Origin: Chlamydiales bacterium
Lineage (GTDB): Bacteria; Chlamydiota; Chlamydiia; Chlamydiales; JARBTN01
Assembly (NCBI GenBank): GCA_029240195.1
Contig: JARBTN010000002.1
Coordinates: forward strand, 1 to 46,914
Length of the DNA: 46,914 nucleotides
Reading direction: 5' to 3'
This document shows, one piece after another, positions 24,703-38,309 of this stretch; position 1 is the stretch's first letter; every line of letters begins with the position of its first letter. Under the pieces are notes generated by a model. It was given only the letters and a program-made list of their open reading frames with translations, made no database searches and was not told the DNA's origin. The position numbers and the translations under genes are program-made.

Positions 24703-24749
24703 AATTTTTTAAAAGGCGGCCCTTCGGGCCTCTCTTTTGAACTCAAATC

Positions 24750-24796
24750 AAAGGCCTTGAGACTTAAGGAAACTTTCCTTAAGTCTCAAGGCCTTT
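24750..24796. repeat. Perfect 23-bp inverted repeat with a 1-nt centre
   Basis: AAAGGCCTTGAGACTTAAGGAAA-c-TTTCCTTAAGTCTCAAGGCCTTT. Confidence 0.85.
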
Positions 24797-24983
24797 TGTT
24801 TTTTCTACCCCAACCCTCACTCAAACGCTCAAAGATAGACAAAACCTCAATCTGTGCCAAGCCAAGTTTTGCCCATCAAAAGTTTTAGCCCGGCTACCTA
24901 AAAAGCTAAAGGCGGCTAAGAATTTTGCCGATGACTCCCAAAAGGTATATTTTCAAAACTCGCTTTTATTGGAGAGGATTTTT

Positions 24984-26429
24984 ATGAGCGTTGTTACTCC
25001 TGGCACCCAAGGTTCTCTTTTGACAGCTCCCGGGGCCCCCCCGCTGAGCACCGACATCAACCACTTCCCAAAGCATGAGACTCTTGTCAATGTCAATGGC
25101 AAGCAAACGGTCACGACGACCTTCATCCGCCAAGAGGCGCAAGACTACTTTCTTCAGCAGATGGCCATTGTCCAAAACTTTTATAATAACTCTGGCGGCG
25201 TCACCTATGCGCAGGCCAATACAGCGATGCAGACGTTGCTCACTTGGGCCACCACCAATTACGTCGACAACACCGGGGCCGAGCAGCTGGCAGCTTACCC
25301 CAAAACCGTCAATGGCGTATTAATCACCGACTTAGGGCCCATCACCCCTTTTATGGCCGAGAGCTTAGAGCTGACGCGCAAATTGGCGCAAGGGCTTGGC
25401 GTCTTTAATGGCGCGGCCCCTTCGGCGACACAATTGGCGGTCTGGCGCTCGACAGCATATATGGAAAACGCCATTGCCGAAGTGATTTCTAATGGCAATA
25501 AAGCCCGAACAGGAACGCTAGTCTGGCTCGACACGGAGACCGGCAAGGCGCCAACAGCCTCATCGACAAAAGCTGCTTGGTACTTTGTCGAATCAAAGAT
25601 GGTCTCCACCTCACTTCAGCACTTAGTGGAAGTGGAATATGTGAGAGGCGGCTATGACGCCATCTATAAAGAGCTCTTCACACTAAACCAAGCCATATCG
25701 ACCAACTCCAGCGTTTTAAAAGTGCTCAACAAGTTGCAACAGGTGATGAACCAAAAGGCGCCGACGGCCTGGCGGATGCAGATCGAAGATTTGCCCATTG
25801 CCGTCAGCATTGCCGACCCTTTTGCTGGCCAGCAAAAATTTGACACCTTCACCAAGCGAATGGACGATTGGGAAAAAGCTAACTTTGATAGTGACATTCC
25901 GCCCCGGGTCACCACCGATAACCTCACCGAAGCCAAAGAAGCCATCGATATCATGACGCAGAATTTAGAGGCCTATGGCTATACGACAGTATCTACCGAC
26001 CGTTTGGAGCAGCTGCAAGATATGCTCAAGTACTTCATCGCCGCTCCAAGCACCGTTGGGACAAACGCGCAGCCCAGTGGAGGGATTGTCTACCAGCTCG
26101 ATGAGGCAGGCACAGGCGATGTCACCATTGCTCTAAACCAGGTGATTGCCGATATGGAGGTCATTTTAAGCGACTCGAGCAATACGACGACGACAGAGTC
26201 GGCTCTTCAAGTTTGGATGGAAGACTTCAATACGGCGGCCCATACCGACGGCCACCACCAAATGCACCTAAACCAAGCCATTGCCGCAGCGACATCCTTT
26301 AACGATCTGCAGCGTGAAAACATGCGCAAGACGATGTTCTTGTACGAGGAATTCATCAAATCGGCGGGGGCGCTGCTCTCGAGAATCACCCAGATCATTG
26401 AAAAATTGGCTGGCACCATCTCCCGTTAA
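24984..26429 (+). CDS. Hypothetical T3SS-associated protein, candidate needle-tip (LcrV/IpaD-like) subunit
   Basis: First gene of the run leading to the translocon. Amphipathic C-terminal helix SFNDLQRENMRKTMFLYEEFIKSAGALLSRITQIIEKL. ATG at 24984 follows a GGAGAGG RBS. Confidence 0.6.
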   Translation: MSVVTPGTQGSLLTAPGAPPLSTDINHFPKHETLVNVNGKQTVTTTFIRQEAQDYFLQQMAIVQNFYNNSGGVTYAQANTAMQTLLTWATTNYVDNTGAEQLAAYPKTVNGVLITDLGPITPFMAESLELTRKLAQGLGVFNGAAPSATQLAVWRSTAYMENAIAEVISNGNKARTGTLVWLDTETGKAPTASSTKAAWYFVESKMVSTSLQHLVEVEYVRGGYDAIYKELFTLNQAISTNSSVLKVLNKLQQVMNQKAPTAWRMQIEDLPIAVSIADPFAGQQKFDTFTKRMDDWEKANFDSDIPPRVTTDNLTEAKEAIDIMTQNLEAYGYTTVSTDRLEQLQDMLKYFIAAPSTVGTNAQPSGGIVYQLDEAGTGDVTIALNQVIADMEVILSDSSNTTTTESALQVWMEDFNTAAHTDGHHQMHLNQAIAAATSFNDLQRENMRKTMFLYEEFIKSAGALLSRITQIIEKLAGTISR

Positions 26430-26453: not shown

Positions 26454-27806
26454 ATGCTCATAGAGACATTCATCGAGAAGCTGCCCAGCATCTCTTATCA
26501 AAATAGCGGCCCCGCTTCTTTTGCAGCAAGCGGGCTGCTCTCTGAAGGGTCCGGCTCGGCGTTTTCTTCCTTTTTAAATGGATTCAATCAAAACCGGCAA
26601 TGGTCGAGCTGGACTGACTTCATCGATAAATGGCGCGCCTTTACCGGCTATGGGGCAGCTCACCCAGGGCTCAATGCAAGGTCCGGTCCAGCCTTTACAG
26701 CCCTTGTCAGCGACTTAAAAAATGCCTTGGCCATCCAGGCCGGTGGCGGAGATTTTGCCCCTTACTTGGCAAGCTTCACTGACCCGACCGATTTTGATCG
26801 AGACATCGAGCAGATTGCCGACGGCTTGATGACCCACATCTTAAATGACTTTCCCTTCCCCTCAGATGGTAGCGCTCCGACATCTGCCTATTTCTTTAGC
26901 TACCTGCAAGACGCCCTGACGACAACGGCTTACTTGCTCAATAGCAGCGCCTCTAATAACGTCGCCACCTATGAAGCCATCTATAGCTCCTTATTTAGCA
27001 CGGGCTTTTCAGAGAAGCTCGTCGACTTCATTGGGCGGCAGGTGGAAGGGGAAGGGTTCTTCACCCCTAGCGTCTTCTATGACAAATGGATTGCAGAGAT
27101 CATCTCCGATTATAAATCCTTGCAGATGCAAGACTTGTCGCCAAACGAATTGAAGAGGCGGCAGGTGACCGATGTCTTGTTTCTCGTGCTCATCCAAATG
27201 CTCGAGATCATTCAAGAATCGATTTCGGTGCAGGCCAAAGTTGCCACTTACATCGCCAAATGGCAAGAGCAATACACCAATTGCATGGAGGCCACCCCCC
27301 TCTATGTACAAAGTCCCGATAGCTACGCCGGGCTGACTCTCGATCGACTGCATGAAATTGCTGTAGAAGCGGTAGAGAAAGAAGGGGTGCCCCAAAGCGC
27401 TTTTGCCGTCCCCCTTCGCGATCCGCCTTCACCCTTCATTACGACAGTCAACTATGCCCTGCCTAAAGACCACGTATCGGGCATTCTCAACTTAACTGTC
27501 GGCGTCGACTATTTAAAGACGCACAGTTTCCCCTTAGGCGGCGTCGGCGAGCTCTACGGCAACGACATCATCGTCAGGCAAAGATGGCAGGGCTCAGGCG
27601 ACAATGCGTCCACGAGAAGTGAGAAGAACCAGGTGATGAGCCAATACTTGTCCAATATCCGCGGCCGCCGCACAGCCTTGAGCTCGCAGCAAAAGCAAGT
27701 AGAGAGCGGCTTAGAGACGACCAACAACTCTCTCAACCAGCTCTCTGCAATCATGACCGCTGTGTTAGCTCAGCTCAATGGCATGCTGAAAGATATCTTC
27801 CGTTAA
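26454..27806 (+). CDS. Hypothetical T3SS-associated coiled-coil protein (paralog A)
   Basis: GAGG RBS, long C-terminal heptad helix ending IFR, strongly similar to the next gene. Confidence 0.7.
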   Translation: MLIETFIEKLPSISYQNSGPASFAASGLLSEGSGSAFSSFLNGFNQNRQWSSWTDFIDKWRAFTGYGAAHPGLNARSGPAFTALVSDLKNALAIQAGGGDFAPYLASFTDPTDFDRDIEQIADGLMTHILNDFPFPSDGSAPTSAYFFSYLQDALTTTAYLLNSSASNNVATYEAIYSSLFSTGFSEKLVDFIGRQVEGEGFFTPSVFYDKWIAEIISDYKSLQMQDLSPNELKRRQVTDVLFLVLIQMLEIIQESISVQAKVATYIAKWQEQYTNCMEATPLYVQSPDSYAGLTLDRLHEIAVEAVEKEGVPQSAFAVPLRDPPSPFITTVNYALPKDHVSGILNLTVGVDYLKTHSFPLGGVGELYGNDIIVRQRWQGSGDNASTRSEKNQVMSQYLSNIRGRRTALSSQQKQVESGLETTNNSLNQLSAIMTAVLAQLNGMLKDIFR

Positions 27807-27833: not shown

Positions 27834-29306
27834 ATGCGTATCGAAGACTTTATCAATTCCCTTTCCCAGTATACTTACCAGGTCGCCGGACCGACAAGTT
27901 TTGGGCAAAGCGGACTTTACGCCGAAGGGTCGAGCTCACAATTTGCCTCCTTCTTAAGCACCTTCAACCGCAGTCAAAACTGGTCGAGCTGGACGGACTT
28001 CATCGAAAAATGGCGCGCCTTTTCCGGATATCAAACAGCGCACCCAACAGTTGGCGTGGAAGAAGGCCCCGCTTTTTTAGGGTTTGTCTCTGATTTTAAG
28101 GTGGCGCTTGGCATCACCGCGGCAGGCGGCGATTTTTTGCATTATAAAAATAGCTTTGCCTCCAGTGCGGACTTTGATGCGGAAATCAATCACATTGTCA
28201 ACGGCTTGATGACGCAAATTTTAAATGACTACCCCTTTGCAGCCGATGGGAGCGCTGCCACTCCCACAGCCTTTTTTAACTACTTAAAACAGGCGATGAC
28301 AGTCACCGGTTATCTGTTGACGGCCACGGTCGGATCAAGCCAAGTGGCCAGCTATGAGAGGATCTACAATAGCTTATTTAGCTCCGGCTTTAGCGCCAAG
28401 CTCGTCGATTTCATCTCCCGCAAAGTGGCATCCGCGGGGTTTTTCACCCCCAGCCTATTTTATGAAGAGTGGGTGGAAGAGGTGCAAGCCGATTTTAAAG
28501 CCACGCAAGGAACGCTGCTCTCGCCAAACGAAAAGCAACGGCGGCAGATTGCCATGACGGTCTACGATATGCTGATCGAGATGATGCAAAATTTGCAAGA
28601 GACCGTCTCCATGCAATCGAAGGCCACGATTTACTTATCCCAGTGGCAAAAAGAGTATACGACCTGCATGCAAGGCACGCCCATCTATGTCAGCGCGCCT
28701 TCCAACTACGCAGGGCTGACGCTAGACTCGCTCCATACCATTGCCGCAAATGCCATGAAATATGAAGACTTAGATCCCTACCACTTCCGCATTAAATACT
28801 GGACTCTGGTCGGCCCCTCGGCAATTGCAGAAGGAACCGGTCACCATCCCGCCGGGTGGCTGGGTGTTTGGACCAGCGAATATAAATGGGCCGGGATCTG
28901 GCTCGACTACGCCGCCAACCCCTACTTTCAAGCCTCTCTTCACCCGGCTCCCGACGGCTCGGCTTCGGGAAGTGGAACCACCCCTGGACCAAACAGCTTT
29001 GGCCTCGGCTGGATCAAAGGCAAGTATTATAGCTGGTATGATGGCGTCCAGCTTTGGAGCACCGATATGGTCATCCGGCAAAGGTGGCAGGGCGCAGGCG
29101 ACAATGCCGATGCCAGATCGGCCAGGAACCAGGTTTTAAACCAGTTTTTAGAAGACATGCGCGGCAAGCGGTCGGTGATCAAAGACCAAGAAGATCAGCT
29201 GACTAACGCGCTGCAAAACACGAACCACTCAATCAATCAGATGGGCGATCTCATGACGGCCATCATGCAGCAGATGAGCACCATGCTGCAGTCTATCTTC
29301 CGTTAA
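27834..29306 (+). CDS. Hypothetical T3SS-associated coiled-coil protein (paralog B)
   Basis: Start MRIEDFI matches paralog A MLIETFI; GGAGA RBS; lies directly upstream of the LcrH chaperone. Confidence 0.7.
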   Translation: MRIEDFINSLSQYTYQVAGPTSFGQSGLYAEGSSSQFASFLSTFNRSQNWSSWTDFIEKWRAFSGYQTAHPTVGVEEGPAFLGFVSDFKVALGITAAGGDFLHYKNSFASSADFDAEINHIVNGLMTQILNDYPFAADGSAATPTAFFNYLKQAMTVTGYLLTATVGSSQVASYERIYNSLFSSGFSAKLVDFISRKVASAGFFTPSLFYEEWVEEVQADFKATQGTLLSPNEKQRRQIAMTVYDMLIEMMQNLQETVSMQSKATIYLSQWQKEYTTCMQGTPIYVSAPSNYAGLTLDSLHTIAANAMKYEDLDPYHFRIKYWTLVGPSAIAEGTGHHPAGWLGVWTSEYKWAGIWLDYAANPYFQASLHPAPDGSASGSGTTPGPNSFGLGWIKGKYYSWYDGVQLWSTDMVIRQRWQGAGDNADARSARNQVLNQFLEDMRGKRSVIKDQEDQLTNALQNTNHSINQMGDLMTAIMQQMSTMLQSIFR

Positions 29307-29327: not shown

Positions 29328-29867
29328 ATGGACCTCGACCAACTACAAAAAGCCATGTCAGAAGTGAACCTCTTTGCCGGCAAGAAGGCAGAAGGGATGA
29401 TTAAAGACCTTCTCTCCAAAGCTATGACCAATGGCTCGTCGCCAAAGGCGGCCCTACAAATTAGCGAAGAGACGATGGAGGGCATCTATAGCCAAGGCTA
29501 TAACCTCTACAATCAAGGGCGCTATCAAGACGCCAGCTACGTCTTCCGCCTGCTGATGATGCTCGACTACAAGGTTGCCAAATACACATTGGGCCTAGCC
29601 GCTTGCTTGCACCGCTTGGGAGATTTTTCCAATGCCATCGTCATCTACACGTTGGTGGGAGTTTTAGAGCCGACAAATCCCATCCCTTACTACCATGCAG
29701 CCGACTGCTTTTTAAAATTGGGCCAAACTGAGGGCGCTTTTTGGGCCTTGGATCAGACAATCATGCTGAGCGCAGAGAATGAAGAGCATGCCGTCTTAAA
29801 AGAGCGCGCCAAGATATTGAAGCAAGGCGTGATGCAAGAAATGCAGCAAGAAAGACCTAAGCAATAA
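29328..29867 (+). CDS. lcrH: SycD/LcrH-family class II T3SS translocator chaperone (Scc2/Scc3-like)
   Basis: MEGIYSQGYNLYNQGRYQDA..VFRLL, YTLGLAAC, NPIPYYHAADC TPR pattern. Confidence 0.9.
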   Translation: MDLDQLQKAMSEVNLFAGKKAEGMIKDLLSKAMTNGSSPKAALQISEETMEGIYSQGYNLYNQGRYQDASYVFRLLMMLDYKVAKYTLGLAACLHRLGDFSNAIVIYTLVGVLEPTNPIPYYHAADCFLKLGQTEGAFWALDQTIMLSAENEEHAVLKERAKILKQGVMQEMQQERPKQ

Positions 29868-29934: not shown

Positions 29935-32244
29935 ATGAGTGAAATCAACCAACCCCCATCTTCGGGGTACAACCCACCAAATAATGATGGTTATTTAGCA
30001 GCAAAGGCAAATAACCCCAATTCAGTAGACGGCAATGTGGATACAACAGGAGCAATAGCTCCCAGTGGCAAGCTGAGAAAAGAAACCGATCCGACAACGG
30101 CCTATAACCCAAGCGCTGGCTCTACGGTCAACACCCAGAGCTTCACCTCCTCAGGAGAGACTCTCTTGGCAGAAAGCCCTGTTTTGGATATGCCCACAGC
30201 AACTCCGGCAGCTGTCATGCAGATGGATCCCAAGACGCTGGCGGCTCTGACCAGCTTGCCCGATCTGATTGCCATGATCTCAGAAAGCTTTACACCGAAG
30301 ACAAAAAGCGATGACGCAAGCGACCCAGCCTTGCCAAGCTCAGATGCGGAAGAAGAGGCCGGCCCCTTTTTTAGCAAAATGTTTCAAGTGCTCGGCCAAA
30401 AGGGCGCCAATGGCGACAAGCAAGATCTAGCTAACCTCCTCTCAGAGTCAGGAGAAGGCGAGGCTGCGACAGGCAGCGCCAAGAGCTCATCGCCTCTCGA
30501 TGCCGGCTTGGAAGCGCTTTTGGGCCTGCCCATTTTAGAAGGGATTGGCGAGACCTTTGCCGCTGACTCGGCAACCTTTGAGAAAGAACTCAATACGGTC
30601 TTGACAAAAGCGCTCGGCACCGACTTGGCGGCGGCCATCGACAAAGCCGCCTCGTCAAAAGATCCCAATGCCTTGACAGCTGAAGAGCTCAAAGTGGCCA
30701 ACAGCTACCTGACACTTTTGGCCCATGCGCTGGCACTCATCTCTTCCATGAAGCAAAAGATGAGCCAAGCTGACTCCAACAAGGTAGAAGATGCAACAAG
30801 AGCCAAACAAGATGCTGTGCAGCTGAAGATCAAAGAGACCGAAGAAAATCAAAAGACGGTGCTCGATCAAATTAAAGCCAAGCAAGAAGGAGATGGCGGA
30901 TGCGCCCTCGTCTTGAAGATCATCATGCCCATTGCCACAGCCGTCGTCGCCATTATTGCCGTCGTCGCAGCCATCTTTACAGGCGGGCAGAGCCTTTGGC
31001 TGATCGGCCTGATGATTGCCGCCTCGATTGCTATGACGGTGGTGACCACATTAGACTCGGCGCTTGACCTGACAGCCAAGCTGGCCGCTGAAATTGGCGG
31101 ACCGCTGGCCTCTTTGGTGATGGCATTTGCGATGATCCTCATTGTCTTGGTGACAGCTGGAGGGGGGCTTGCCATTGCCGCTGCCGCTTTAGCTAGAACA
31201 GCTTCCAGCGCCGTCGTCTCTCAAACCGTCGCCTCCGCGGTAAGGGCCTCTGTCGGCACGTCTGTGCAAGAGTCGATCAAGCAAGCAGGCAAGAGCACGA
31301 TACAAACAACGCTCACCCAAGTTGCCAAAGACGTGTTCATGACTAAAATGGGAGTGGCATTGGTCACAACGCTCGTGGTCGAGGTTTTGATGTCGAGCGG
31401 CCTCCTCAATCAGGCCATCACCGAATCTGTCCTAGCCATGGGCGGCTCACAAGAAGACGCGATGATCGTCTCTATCGTCTTAACGGTGATCATTGCCATC
31501 TTTATGATGTGCTTTGCGGTCTACGCCGCAGGAAGCGCGACAAAAGGGATCACTAGCGCAGCGGATGACATTGCCGAAGAGGGAGCCGGCGCAGCAGCGA
31601 CTGGCACAGCCAGCGCAGCTAGCACAGTCGTTAAAGCAGCTAAAGAAGGTGACAACTTGGCCGGCAGCGTAACGCAAGTGGCCGCTCAAAAAGCCATCGA
31701 ATTAGCTGCAGAAGAGGCCAAAAAGACCGAAAAGCTGCTCAGCAAATTTTTCCTGAAAATGTTGGAAAAGCTGGAAGAATTGATCGGATTGGCCCCAGGC
31801 TCGTTTAAAAATGCCAGTTCACTCTCAGATGTCGGCAGCATTGCCGGCAACATTGCCGGCAAGAGCGTGGTCCAGGCAGGGGAGTTTGGTGCAGATGTGA
31901 TCAAAGCGACAGTCGGCTGGGCGGGAAAAGATAAGCTGATCAAGATTGTCAACACTCTCACGCAGCTTTCTCAATACGCAGAGGGCGCTGTCATAACGGC
32001 CTCAGGCACTAAAAAGCTAGAGATGGCAGAAGAGAATTTAGAGCTGGTCAAAGCGCTGGCAGAAATCCGCACCTTCTTAGCTTACTACGACATGGATGTC
32101 AAGGCCTTTGATTCCATCTATCAGCTGTGCCTTGATATGCTTAAAGAGGGAAGCCAGACAACAAATGGCATGTTCGAAGTCTTTAAAAATATCATCAAAG
32201 GGCAGCAAGCCATTTTACAGAAAATGACAGACGGCGGAATGTAA
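29935..32244 (+). CDS. Major hydrophobic translocator (SctE/CopB-like)
   Basis: Follows lcrH. Ser/Pro-rich N-terminus, coiled coil, then several hydrophobic segments including AIFTGGQSL, and a C-terminal coiled coil. Confidence 0.75.
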   Translation: MSEINQPPSSGYNPPNNDGYLAAKANNPNSVDGNVDTTGAIAPSGKLRKETDPTTAYNPSAGSTVNTQSFTSSGETLLAESPVLDMPTATPAAVMQMDPKTLAALTSLPDLIAMISESFTPKTKSDDASDPALPSSDAEEEAGPFFSKMFQVLGQKGANGDKQDLANLLSESGEGEAATGSAKSSSPLDAGLEALLGLPILEGIGETFAADSATFEKELNTVLTKALGTDLAAAIDKAASSKDPNALTAEELKVANSYLTLLAHALALISSMKQKMSQADSNKVEDATRAKQDAVQLKIKETEENQKTVLDQIKAKQEGDGGCALVLKIIMPIATAVVAIIAVVAAIFTGGQSLWLIGLMIAASIAMTVVTTLDSALDLTAKLAAEIGGPLASLVMAFAMILIVLVTAGGGLAIAAAALARTASSAVVSQTVASAVRASVGTSVQESIKQAGKSTIQTTLTQVAKDVFMTKMGVALVTTLVVEVLMSSGLLNQAITESVLAMGGSQEDAMIVSIVLTVIIAIFMMCFAVYAAGSATKGITSAADDIAEEGAGAAATGTASAASTVVKAAKEGDNLAGSVTQVAAQKAIELAAEEAKKTEKLLSKFFLKMLEKLEELIGLAPGSFKNASSLSDVGSIAGNIAGKSVVQAGEFGADVIKATVGWAGKDKLIKIVNTLTQLSQYAEGAVITASGTKKLEMAEENLELVKALAEIRTFLAYYDMDVKAFDSIYQLCLDMLKEGSQTTNGMFEVFKNIIKGQQAILQKMTDGGM

Positions 32245-32275: not shown

Positions 32276-33706
32276 ATGAGCAGCAATTCTATTGACAGCG
32301 GTTCTACGGGAATTCCCGGCGGCGCCGAGCCTTCTAAAGACATGCAAACGGCCGGATTGCCCTTTGATTTTGGGCTAGGGCTTTTAGGCAGCGATAACAA
32401 ACGAGAAGCCATCGGCAAAGTGAGGGCTAGCGATATGCTCGATCCCACTTTTTTTGCCGGCAACGCCAATGTCAACCCCGACGGCAGCAGCTCGACAGCC
32501 GCCGATGAGCCCTGGCTCATCGTGCCCGATCAGGCTATGGTCGATCAATGGATCAAAGAAGTTTTGAGCCTCAACAAATCAGGCTCTCAACCTGACGCCT
32601 TAGCAGGCGGACTTGGAAGCCTCTTTGGCGAGCCCGATTCAATCGATGAAGGGGAAGTGTCCCTAGCGGCCACAAGCGCCTCTTCTCAGGCTTTGGACAG
32701 CTCCGATATCGATAAGCTGGCCTCATTGCTGGGCCTTAAGGCAAGTGCTGCGGATGGAGCCTCTCTCACGCCCAATCTTTGGGTATCGACATCGAGCTCC
32801 GTCTTTAGAATCTTTATGCTCCTCTCAGAGCTCGGCCCCATAAGGCAGGAGATGATGAAAGAGGAAGTCGTCGCTCTGATCAAAGGGATGCAGTCCTCTT
32901 TAGATTTGTCGTTGACGATCGCCGATAAAACAAAAGAGATTGGTGAACTGCAAGTGAAAGAAGCTGCCGCCCAGATTGGAGCGGCCGCAGCTCAAATAGC
33001 CAATGGCATGATGCAAATCGGCGGCGCTCTCGGCGGCGCGTTTGGGGGCTACAAAGCCCACAAAAAAGAAATGAAACATATCGCCGATCAAAAGGCTGAC
33101 TTGACGACCAAATACGCCCCGCCAGCTGCTGCCGCTGCACCTGCTGCAGGCCCAGGTCTAGCACCGCCACCTGCGGCAGGTGCAGCAGCGGCAGCAGGTA
33201 CCGTAGGCCCAGCTGCCCCTGCCACTCCTGCTGCCGGAGGCCCAGCCGCTCCTGCCGCTCCTGCAGCCGGAGGCCCAGCCGCTCCTGCTGCTGCCGCTCC
33301 TGCTCCTGCTCTTTCGCCGAAGGAGCTGGCTAAGAGAGAACGGGACAAAATGAAAGCCGAGACCGATTTAGAGGCTAGGACGCCCTCTTCCATGTTCGCT
33401 TCCAACGCCTATGGCAACGTCGCCCAACTTTCCAATGGCCTTGCCGGCGGAGTTGGCAAGAGCATTGAAGCAGCCGGTCAGATGGGTGTGCAAATCCTCT
33501 TTTTGTACACCAAGATGGCCATGGCGCTAGCTGAGGCGACAAAATCGATGGCTGAGGCGGCGAAGGGATCGCAAGATCAGGTCAACAACTCGCTGCGCGA
33601 TGATATCAAATCGCTTGCCGACGCTTCACAGACGCTGGCTAGCCTCTTGCAGGCATTCATCAGCACGGCGCAATCGCGCAGTTCGCAAGGGCCATCCGGC
33701 ACTTAA
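32276..33706 (+). CDS. Minor hydrophobic translocator (SctB/CopD-like) with an Ala/Pro-rich insert
   Basis: Third gene of the chaperone-SctE-SctB order; Gly/Ala-rich hydrophobic segments and a C-terminal amphipathic helix. Confidence 0.65.
   Translation: MSSNSIDSGSTGIPGGAEPSKDMQTAGLPFDFGLGLLGSDNKREAIGKVRASDMLDPTFFAGNANVNPDGSSSTAADEPWLIVPDQAMVDQWIKEVLSLNKSGSQPDALAGGLGSLFGEPDSIDEGEVSLAATSASSQALDSSDIDKLASLLGLKASAADGASLTPNLWVSTSSSVFRIFMLLSELGPIRQEMMKEEVVALIKGMQSSLDLSLTIADKTKEIGELQVKEAAAQIGAAAAQIANGMMQIGGALGGAFGGYKAHKKEMKHIADQKADLTTKYAPPAAAAAPAAGPGLAPPPAAGAAAAAGTVGPAAPATPAAGGPAAPAAPAAGGPAAPAAAAPAPALSPKELAKRERDKMKAETDLEARTPSSMFASNAYGNVAQLSNGLAGGVGKSIEAAGQMGVQILFLYTKMAMALAEATKSMAEAAKGSQDQVNNSLRDDIKSLADASQTLASLLQAFISTAQSRSSQGPSGT
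33194..33292 (+). repeat. 33-bp tandem repeat (PAAGGPAAPAA; two near-identical units and one degenerate unit)
   Basis: cctgctgccggaggcccagccgctcctgccgct / cctgcagccggaggcccagccgctcctgctgct. Confidence 0.8.
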
Positions 33707-36900: not shown

Positions 36901-37140
36901 ATGTCTCAAGACAGACAAGCCTTCTTCATGAGTGGACTTATCTCGATCGTAGAAAGCGCCACCGTCAGTGCTAAACTTAAGATCAGCGCCATTAAAAACA
37001 AAAAAAGCTCCATCAGCATTGCCGACATGTTCGAGATGCAGATGCTCATGAACCACTTGAGCCAGCTTTCTGAGATGTGCACTTCTGTCGTATCGGCGGC
37101 CAATACCGCGATCAGCTCGATGGCCCGCAACGTCAAGTAA
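36901..37140 (+). CDS. cdsF: T3SS needle subunit CdsF (SctF)
   Basis: ISIADMFEMQMLMNHLSQLSEM.TSVVSAANTAISSMARNVK, a chlamydial needle-type C-terminus. Confidence 0.85.
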   Translation: MSQDRQAFFMSGLISIVESATVSAKLKISAIKNKKSSISIADMFEMQMLMNHLSQLSEMCTSVVSAANTAISSMARNVK

Positions 37141-37655: not shown

Positions 37656-38309
37656 ATGGCAGCTGTAGCAAAAATCGAAGAAATCTCCAAAGTGGGGCAA
37701 AAGACGCTCAAGTCTTCCTTTGACACTCTCGTCGCCGATGCCAATCAGGCGCAATTTGAAGTGGTCCATTTGGCCGAAAAAAAAGGACTTGAAAGTGGCG
37801 GCATCCAAAGCACCCAGGCCGCTAACCCCATTTCGCCGATCGCTCTCCTCAACCAGCCGATCCAGGCAAGCGAGCCCGCCTTTTCCAAAATCATCGCCAA
37901 CACGCAGCTATCGGTCGACGCCATCGATACGGTCAAAGAGCGCCTTCAGACGCCAAACCTGACTTTAAAGAGCTCCGTGCAGCGCATTTTAAACGATAAA
38001 TTAAATGGTGTTGAGGGCAACCTCAAGACGGCGATGACTCAAGCCGGCCTGGAATATGAGCCGAGCAAGAGCACCCGCGTCAATCCCGTCACGCGCTTTT
38101 TAGATATGCTGACGCAAGGCCAGAATAAATTGATGAGCATGTCGAGCCATTTAGAGGGCTTGGCAGCGGAAGGAAATAAGCTAAGCCCTGAGAGAATGCT
38201 CTCATTGCAGCTTAAAATGACCTCGATTCAGCAAGAGCTCGAATTCTTCACCAACGTCTTGAATAAATCTTTAGAATCGACCAAGACGCTCATGAACGTA
38301 CAAATCTAA
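37656..38309 (+). CDS. CT668-like T3SS-associated protein (possible inner rod)
   Basis: Lies between cdsG and cdsN; C-terminal LSPERMLSLQLKM..IQQELEFFT..LNK.....KTLMNVQI resembles an SctI-like tail. Confidence 0.7.
   Translation: MAAVAKIEEISKVGQKTLKSSFDTLVADANQAQFEVVHLAEKKGLESGGIQSTQAANPISPIALLNQPIQASEPAFSKIIANTQLSVDAIDTVKERLQTPNLTLKSSVQRILNDKLNGVEGNLKTAMTQAGLEYEPSKSTRVNPVTRFLDMLTQGQNKLMSMSSHLEGLAAEGNKLSPERMLSLQLKMTSIQQELEFFTNVLNKSLESTKTLMNVQI

Follow-up and report, generated by a model that had tools for sequence, protein, structure and literature searches.

Which protein forms the tip of the chlamydial type III secretion needle is the question raised by the locus described here. The window analysed is a stretch of 46,914 nucleotides (nt), contig C107 (JARBTN010000002.1) of a Chlamydiales genome (GCA_029240195.1; completeness 87.9%), in which the open reading frame (ORF) ORF1 begins a closely packed run of genes that includes two paralogous ORFs, ORF2 and ORF3, and the translocator chaperone gene lcrH. 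In situ, the needles of C. trachomatis carry a visible tip complex (PMC4682100; articles cited by such numbers are represented by excerpts throughout). CT584/Cpn0803, an earlier candidate for the same role, does not resemble a tip (PMC3260263) and reportedly gave no protection when used as an antigen in mice (PMC11512284), and the excerpts of PMC5451489, PMC4652624 and PMC10448858 contain no tip assignment. We consider it probable that ORF1 is an SctA-class axial subunit of the chlamydial needle tip. The tip is likely formed by two families, with ORF1 supplying a needle-like layer and ORF2/ORF3 an LcrV-like layer, and this two-family arrangement is likely the novel part of the analysis. In the literature searched, with supplements and subscription papers outside its scope, nothing was found that places these families at the tip.

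Architecture of ORF1

SctA tip proteins, namely LcrV/PcrV/AcrV (PF04792) and IpaD/SipD/BipD (PF06511), are hydrophilic and have the coiled-coil domain layout that is predicted for ORF1. An earlier note on this DNA had proposed ORF1 as such a tip protein, describing a 481-residue unknown protein with an internal and a terminal helix. The ORF, both peptides (residues 210–257 and 438–481) and the two helices (211–256 and 425–480 in the AlphaFold model) were confirmed. The model showed an N-terminal domain, helix A, a distal domain and helix B, which closes an antiparallel coiled coil; the topology on which the proposal had been made to depend is present in the model. ORF1 is hydrophilic with no transmembrane segment (maximum 19-residue hydropathy 1.05), and its two helices have hydrophobic periods of 3.4 and 3.6. 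Conservation across the family peaks in these helices, where the mean top-residue share is 0.51 and 0.65, compared with 0.08–0.36 elsewhere. Helix B ends at the C-terminus in 147 of 149 relatives, and length variation is confined to the distal domain, which spans 119–2050 amino acids (aa); ORF1 is larger than the SctA tips. Residues 1–44 likely form a putative type III secretion signal, and the N-terminal domain may, as in IpaD, serve as a self-chaperone.

No Pfam or NCBIfam family matched ORF1 above cut-off, LcrV (PF04792), T3SS_TC (PF06511), EspA (PF03433) and DUF582/Effector_1 (PF04518) included. Among the nearest clusters in a language-model search were LcrV-bearing, DUF582, EspA and IpaD/SipD clusters (0.91–0.95; EspA 0.91). 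The best biological structural matches of the model were FlgL and flagellin D1 (136–195 aligned residues, root-mean-square deviation 3.1–5.4), with which ORF1 shares conserved ends and a hypervariable middle. There was no Pfam flagellin match, and the structural alignments span the D1-like helices only, with no D0 segments.

Distribution and genomic context of the ORF1 family

A word-index search with ORF1 returned ORF1 alone. A phmmer search of 1.84 billion representatives gave 450 relatives at an expectation value (E) of ≤0.001, the best being 33% identical, and the observation is therefore beyond chance. In a panel of 40 other genomes, each from a different family, ORF1 had matches in 16, and a 94-sequence profile detected the family in 35 of 200 genomes, its own included (one genome was not scored). 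In 31 of the 35, the next 1 kb downstream contained an ORF2/3-family gene in the same orientation; the other four comprised two with divergent ORF2/3 placement, one contig edge and one diverged copy directly downstream. Among 17 ORF1-family loci, lcrH was present in the cluster at 12, three were at a contig edge, one was a secretion cluster without lcrH and one was an unlinked paralogue. The homologues are linked to translocon genes, as the proposal demanded. SctA tip genes are also found upstream of a class II chaperone and translocators (acrV-acrH-aopB-aopD and lcrV-lcrH-yopB-yopD were seen). In the window, no lcrG-like gene was seen beside ORF1. Unlike SctA tips, the ORF1 family is accompanied by a second tip-like family and often occurs in paralogue arrays.

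Searches for the family were negative in f5 (0/29), f8 (0/36), f43 (0/23) and several smaller families. Ten ORF1-negative genomes were inspected; several carried helical genes of 170–360 aa directly 5' of lcrH, one of these genes weakly resembling EspA (E 0.0028). A strong lcrH match was missing in two of the ten. ORF1 is single copy in its own genome, with two to three tandem copies in some genomes and five to six in family f13. Two f13 loci (L036:8043-13975, L166:9061-13620) hold arrays of four to five diverged paralogues transcribed away from ORF2/3-lcrH, and one of these arrays adjoins an snf2 gene, recalling the placement of CT711/CT712.

Further genes were observed around lcrH or beside ORF1 homologues. 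In many relatives (L021, L022, L023, L028, L029, L030, L033 and L165), a gene of 830–1020 aa without a Pfam family lies directly upstream of the homologue. These genes show weak similarity to one another, and no copy was detected in the source genome. At L098:10216-15866 (G003), two large pre-lcrH genes have an N-terminal DUF4347, and one of the two has a tail like that of ORF1 (E 4e-5). On a Nitratidesulfovibrio plasmid, an unannotated gene of 169 aa immediately 5' of lcrH (L089:7450-7959) weakly matches the ORF1 tail (E 0.1) and possibly encodes a small tip protein.

The terminal helix of ORF1

Short, trimmed profiles of the last 75 residues were compared with HHalign against shuffled and reversed controls. 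The obtained results showed that the ORF1-family tail and the chlamydial needle subunit match at 88% (E 3e-6) in a gap-free stretch of 37 columns that reaches the very end, with a score of 33 against 17 for the best shuffle and 15 reversed. It also matches DUF582 (CT619–621, CT711, CT712) at 68–74% (E 3–5e-5), with the terminal 64 residues aligning colinearly to the C-terminus (score 28, shuffle 16, reversed 10), and reciprocal hidden Markov model matches were obtained at 2.7e-5 and 1.4e-4. The DUF582 tail in turn matches the needle subunit at 84%. As a positive control, the needle subunit matched the tail of the rod-like gene at 37656–38309 at 89%.

No match was obtained between the tail profile of ORF1 and those of LcrV (0%), SctE (5%) or SctB (1%). 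These negatives carry little weight, because LcrV against SipD and LcrV against the needle fail in the same comparison. No recognisable sequence homology of ORF1 to LcrV/IpaD or other SctA tips was detected, and the tail is needle-like rather than LcrV-like.

ORF2 and ORF3 as probable LcrV counterparts

The model of ORF2 has the same layout as ORF1, with helices at residues 230–280 and 385–449. The ORF2/3 tail profile matched LcrV at 78–85% (E 6e-6) over 43 columns, scoring 31 against 19 shuffled and 18 reversed; with a longer core the match weakens to E 0.19 in an unchanged register. Within a local collection of 1222 proteins, into which 18 LcrV tails had been placed, the 14 best non-family matches of the tail were all LcrV (best 6e-8), while the reversed set reached 0.016 and 1000 shuffled tails 0.024. 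The language-model neighbours of ORF2 were IpaD/SipD (0.96) and LcrV (0.94), then DUF582, EspA and DUF720, in a search where four of the ten best named matches share one family. ORF3 occupies the acrV/lcrV position immediately before the chaperone. By tail profile, by language-model neighbours and by position in the gene order, ORF2 and ORF3 are better LcrV equivalents than ORF1. A lone 239-aa gene (G000:C68:4612-5331; L164:4612-5331, minus strand) matches only the N-terminal domain of ORF2/3 (E 4.9e-16); it has no coiled coil and is remote from secretion genes.

Proposed role and alternative explanations

FlgK and FlgL act as adaptors between hook and filament. By analogy, ORF1 might form an adaptor layer between the needle and ORF2/ORF3. 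It would be secreted after needle completion via its disordered N-terminus, and helix B would insert between the needle protofilament ends, replacing a needle subunit and displaying the variable distal domain toward the host. Alternatively, ORF1 may be a co-subunit of a mixed ring, where ORF2/ORF3 could scaffold the insertion of SctE/SctB.

Two points weigh against a tip role for ORF1: it has no full-length sequence homology to LcrV, and the DUF582 proteins CT620, CT621 and CT711 are reported in the host cytosol and nucleus (PMC5053991, PMC6717882). ORF1 could accordingly be a translocated effector that shares a terminal coiled coil and resides in the translocon operon for co-regulation. The tail match to DUF582, whose members are also reported to bind Hrs (PMC6717882, PMC5053991), points this way, as do the varying sizes of the family members, their arrays of paralogues and the copies that are unlinked; however, an invariant flush C-terminal helix, likeness to the needle subunit and a fixed pre-translocon place are unusual for effectors. 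CT619 lacking its last 89 residues, the most conserved ones, binds Hrs unaffected (PMC5053991), so the conserved tail serves another job. We regard an effector role as unlikely.

Polymerisation of ORF1 into an EspA- or flagellin-like filament or sheath, lengthening the needle without forming a terminal ring, is less likely again. Although the D1-like structural matches, the hypervariable middle and the EspA cluster are consistent with it, the flagellin alignments cover D1-like helices only (9lah 56–233 of 270) and leave no space for a C-terminal D0, a 200-aa N-domain precedes helix A, and the C. trachomatis needle measures 28 nm and bears a discrete tip complex (PMC4682100). Marginally the least probable is that ORF1 alone forms a canonical SctA homopentamer while ORF2/ORF3 do something else. 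Its topology, size and single copy in the source genome fit SctA, but ORF2/ORF3 are nearer LcrV/IpaD by all three lines of comparison. Tip-class membership of ORF1, as first proposed, is supported by predicted fold, linkage and the LcrV and IpaD/SipD language-model clusters; the claim that it is the sole SctA is not supported, its tail being needle- and DUF582-like and ORF2/ORF3 the better LcrV counterparts.

Relationship to DUF582 and DUF720 of Chlamydiaceae

Profile comparison shows homology between the ORF2/3 family and DUF720 (HHalign 84%, E 7.4e-6, 131 columns across both helices), with weak reciprocal matches. The link between ORF1 and DUF582 is weaker: the whole alignment reached only E 0.018, no alignment was obtained for helix A (E 0.065) and ORF1 has no Pfam match. 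Both have needle-like tails, vary in size and have paralogues. Every f30 (14/14) and f36 (28/28) genome contained both DUF582 and DUF720, each of which had one further weak match elsewhere; f36 would correspond to Chlamydiaceae. None of these genomes gave a match to the ORF1 family, and the ORF2/3 profile matched once, on a DUF720 gene. This complementary distribution counts as one or two evolutionary events, since kin are not independent. At 9/14 loci in f30, DUF582 and lcrH are transcribed in the same direction, with DUF582 standing one or two genes ahead of lcrH and a pair of translocator-sized genes; the other 5/14 lack this arrangement, and the DUF582 loci examined in f36 lie away from lcrH. 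The N-terminal regions of DUF582 weakly match the solved CT622 and CHLPN 76 kD-like proteins (5ue0, 9h2q; E 5e-4).

Four DUF582 proteins build up in the infectious form (PMC5053991). Among 675 chlamydial proteins, nine besides the secreted protease CPAF changed with it, namely all five DUF582 proteins, CT847, CT849, the ruler CT671 and the translocator CT860 (PMC5040114). This set fits exposed parts of the apparatus; the study itself took it as effectors. We tentatively suggest, at somewhat short of an even chance, that the tip is layered from two families and that DUF582 (CT619–621, CT711–712) and DUF720 (CT847–849) are diverged descendants of those families and hence the missing tip subunits of C. 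trachomatis.

The locus supplies concrete tip candidates in environmental chlamydiae, tied to two Chlamydiaceae families. As antibodies and constructs for both families are already published, the Chlamydiaceae tip question is directly testable. If the suggestion holds, eight supposed effectors would be reassigned, the tip would be built from two protein families, and better tip-directed vaccine antigens would be indicated, as with LcrV for Yersinia.

Organisation of the locus

The gene order is clpX, two terminator-like hairpins, ORF1, ORF2, ORF3, lcrH, SctE-like, SctB-like and cesT, followed by cdsD, a CdsG-like gene, sctN, sctO, sctQ, a kinase gene and a secretin gene (Table 1). The run from ORF1 to cesT has intergenic gaps of 21–67 nt and a G+C content of 0.52 (window 0.50). 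ORF1 does stand first in this tightly spaced run, as the earlier note had it, but two unknown genes precede the chaperone and ORF3 holds the lcrV position. An alternative TTG start of ORF1 at 24969 would give 486 aa; a GGAGAGG motif resembling a ribosome site lies directly 5' of 24984. The genes that we take to be cdsE, cdsF, CT668, mutL, pepP and pckA carry provisional or positional names, with no library match behind them.

Table 1. Coordinates of the features discussed, in window positions.
Feature	Position	Strand	Description
Two terminator-like hairpins	24718..24796	+	5-pair GC stem and 47-nt near-perfect palindrome
ORF1	24984..26429	+	481 aa, ATG start
ORF1 residues 1–44	24984..25115	+	Disordered (predicted local distance difference test <50), S/T/P-rich, unconserved (0.17)
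ORF1 N-terminal domain, about 45–204	25116..25595	+	Mixed helix/strand; barely covered by fold search
ORF1 helix A, 211–256	25614..25751	+	First arm of antiparallel coiled coil
ORF1 distal helical domain, 257–424	25752..26255	+	Site of length variation among relatives
ORF1 helix B, 425–480	26256..26423	+	Most conserved; reaches C-terminus; profile match to needle-subunit and DUF582 termini
ORF2	26454..27806	+	450 aa; second family, DUF720 homologue
ORF3	27834..29306	+	ORF2 paralogue, 48% identity; directly 5' of lcrH; alternative TTG start 27822
SycD/LcrH class II translocator chaperone	29328..29867	+	TIGR02552 148 bits, cut-off 104.8
SctE/CopB-like major translocator	29935..32244	+	SseC E 3.9e-5, under cut-off; hydrophobic window 3.01
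SctB/CopD-like minor translocator	32276..33706	+	By position only; no Pfam or NCBIfam match
Needle subunit, presumably CdsF	36901..37140	+	79 aa; label from position before CdsG-like gene
Rod-like gene before sctN	37656..38309		Weak HrpB2 match; tail homologous to needle subunit, 89–92%

The hairpins 3' of clpX part it from the tip and translocon genes, and the palindrome (24750–24796), present once in the genome, is probably a two-way terminator. Given its needle-like tail and weak HrpB2 match, the gene before sctN likely encodes the inner-rod protein SctI. Extra needle-subunit paralogues were observed in some relatives (L222, L223 (G026:C35), L220, L221), two of them in tandem.
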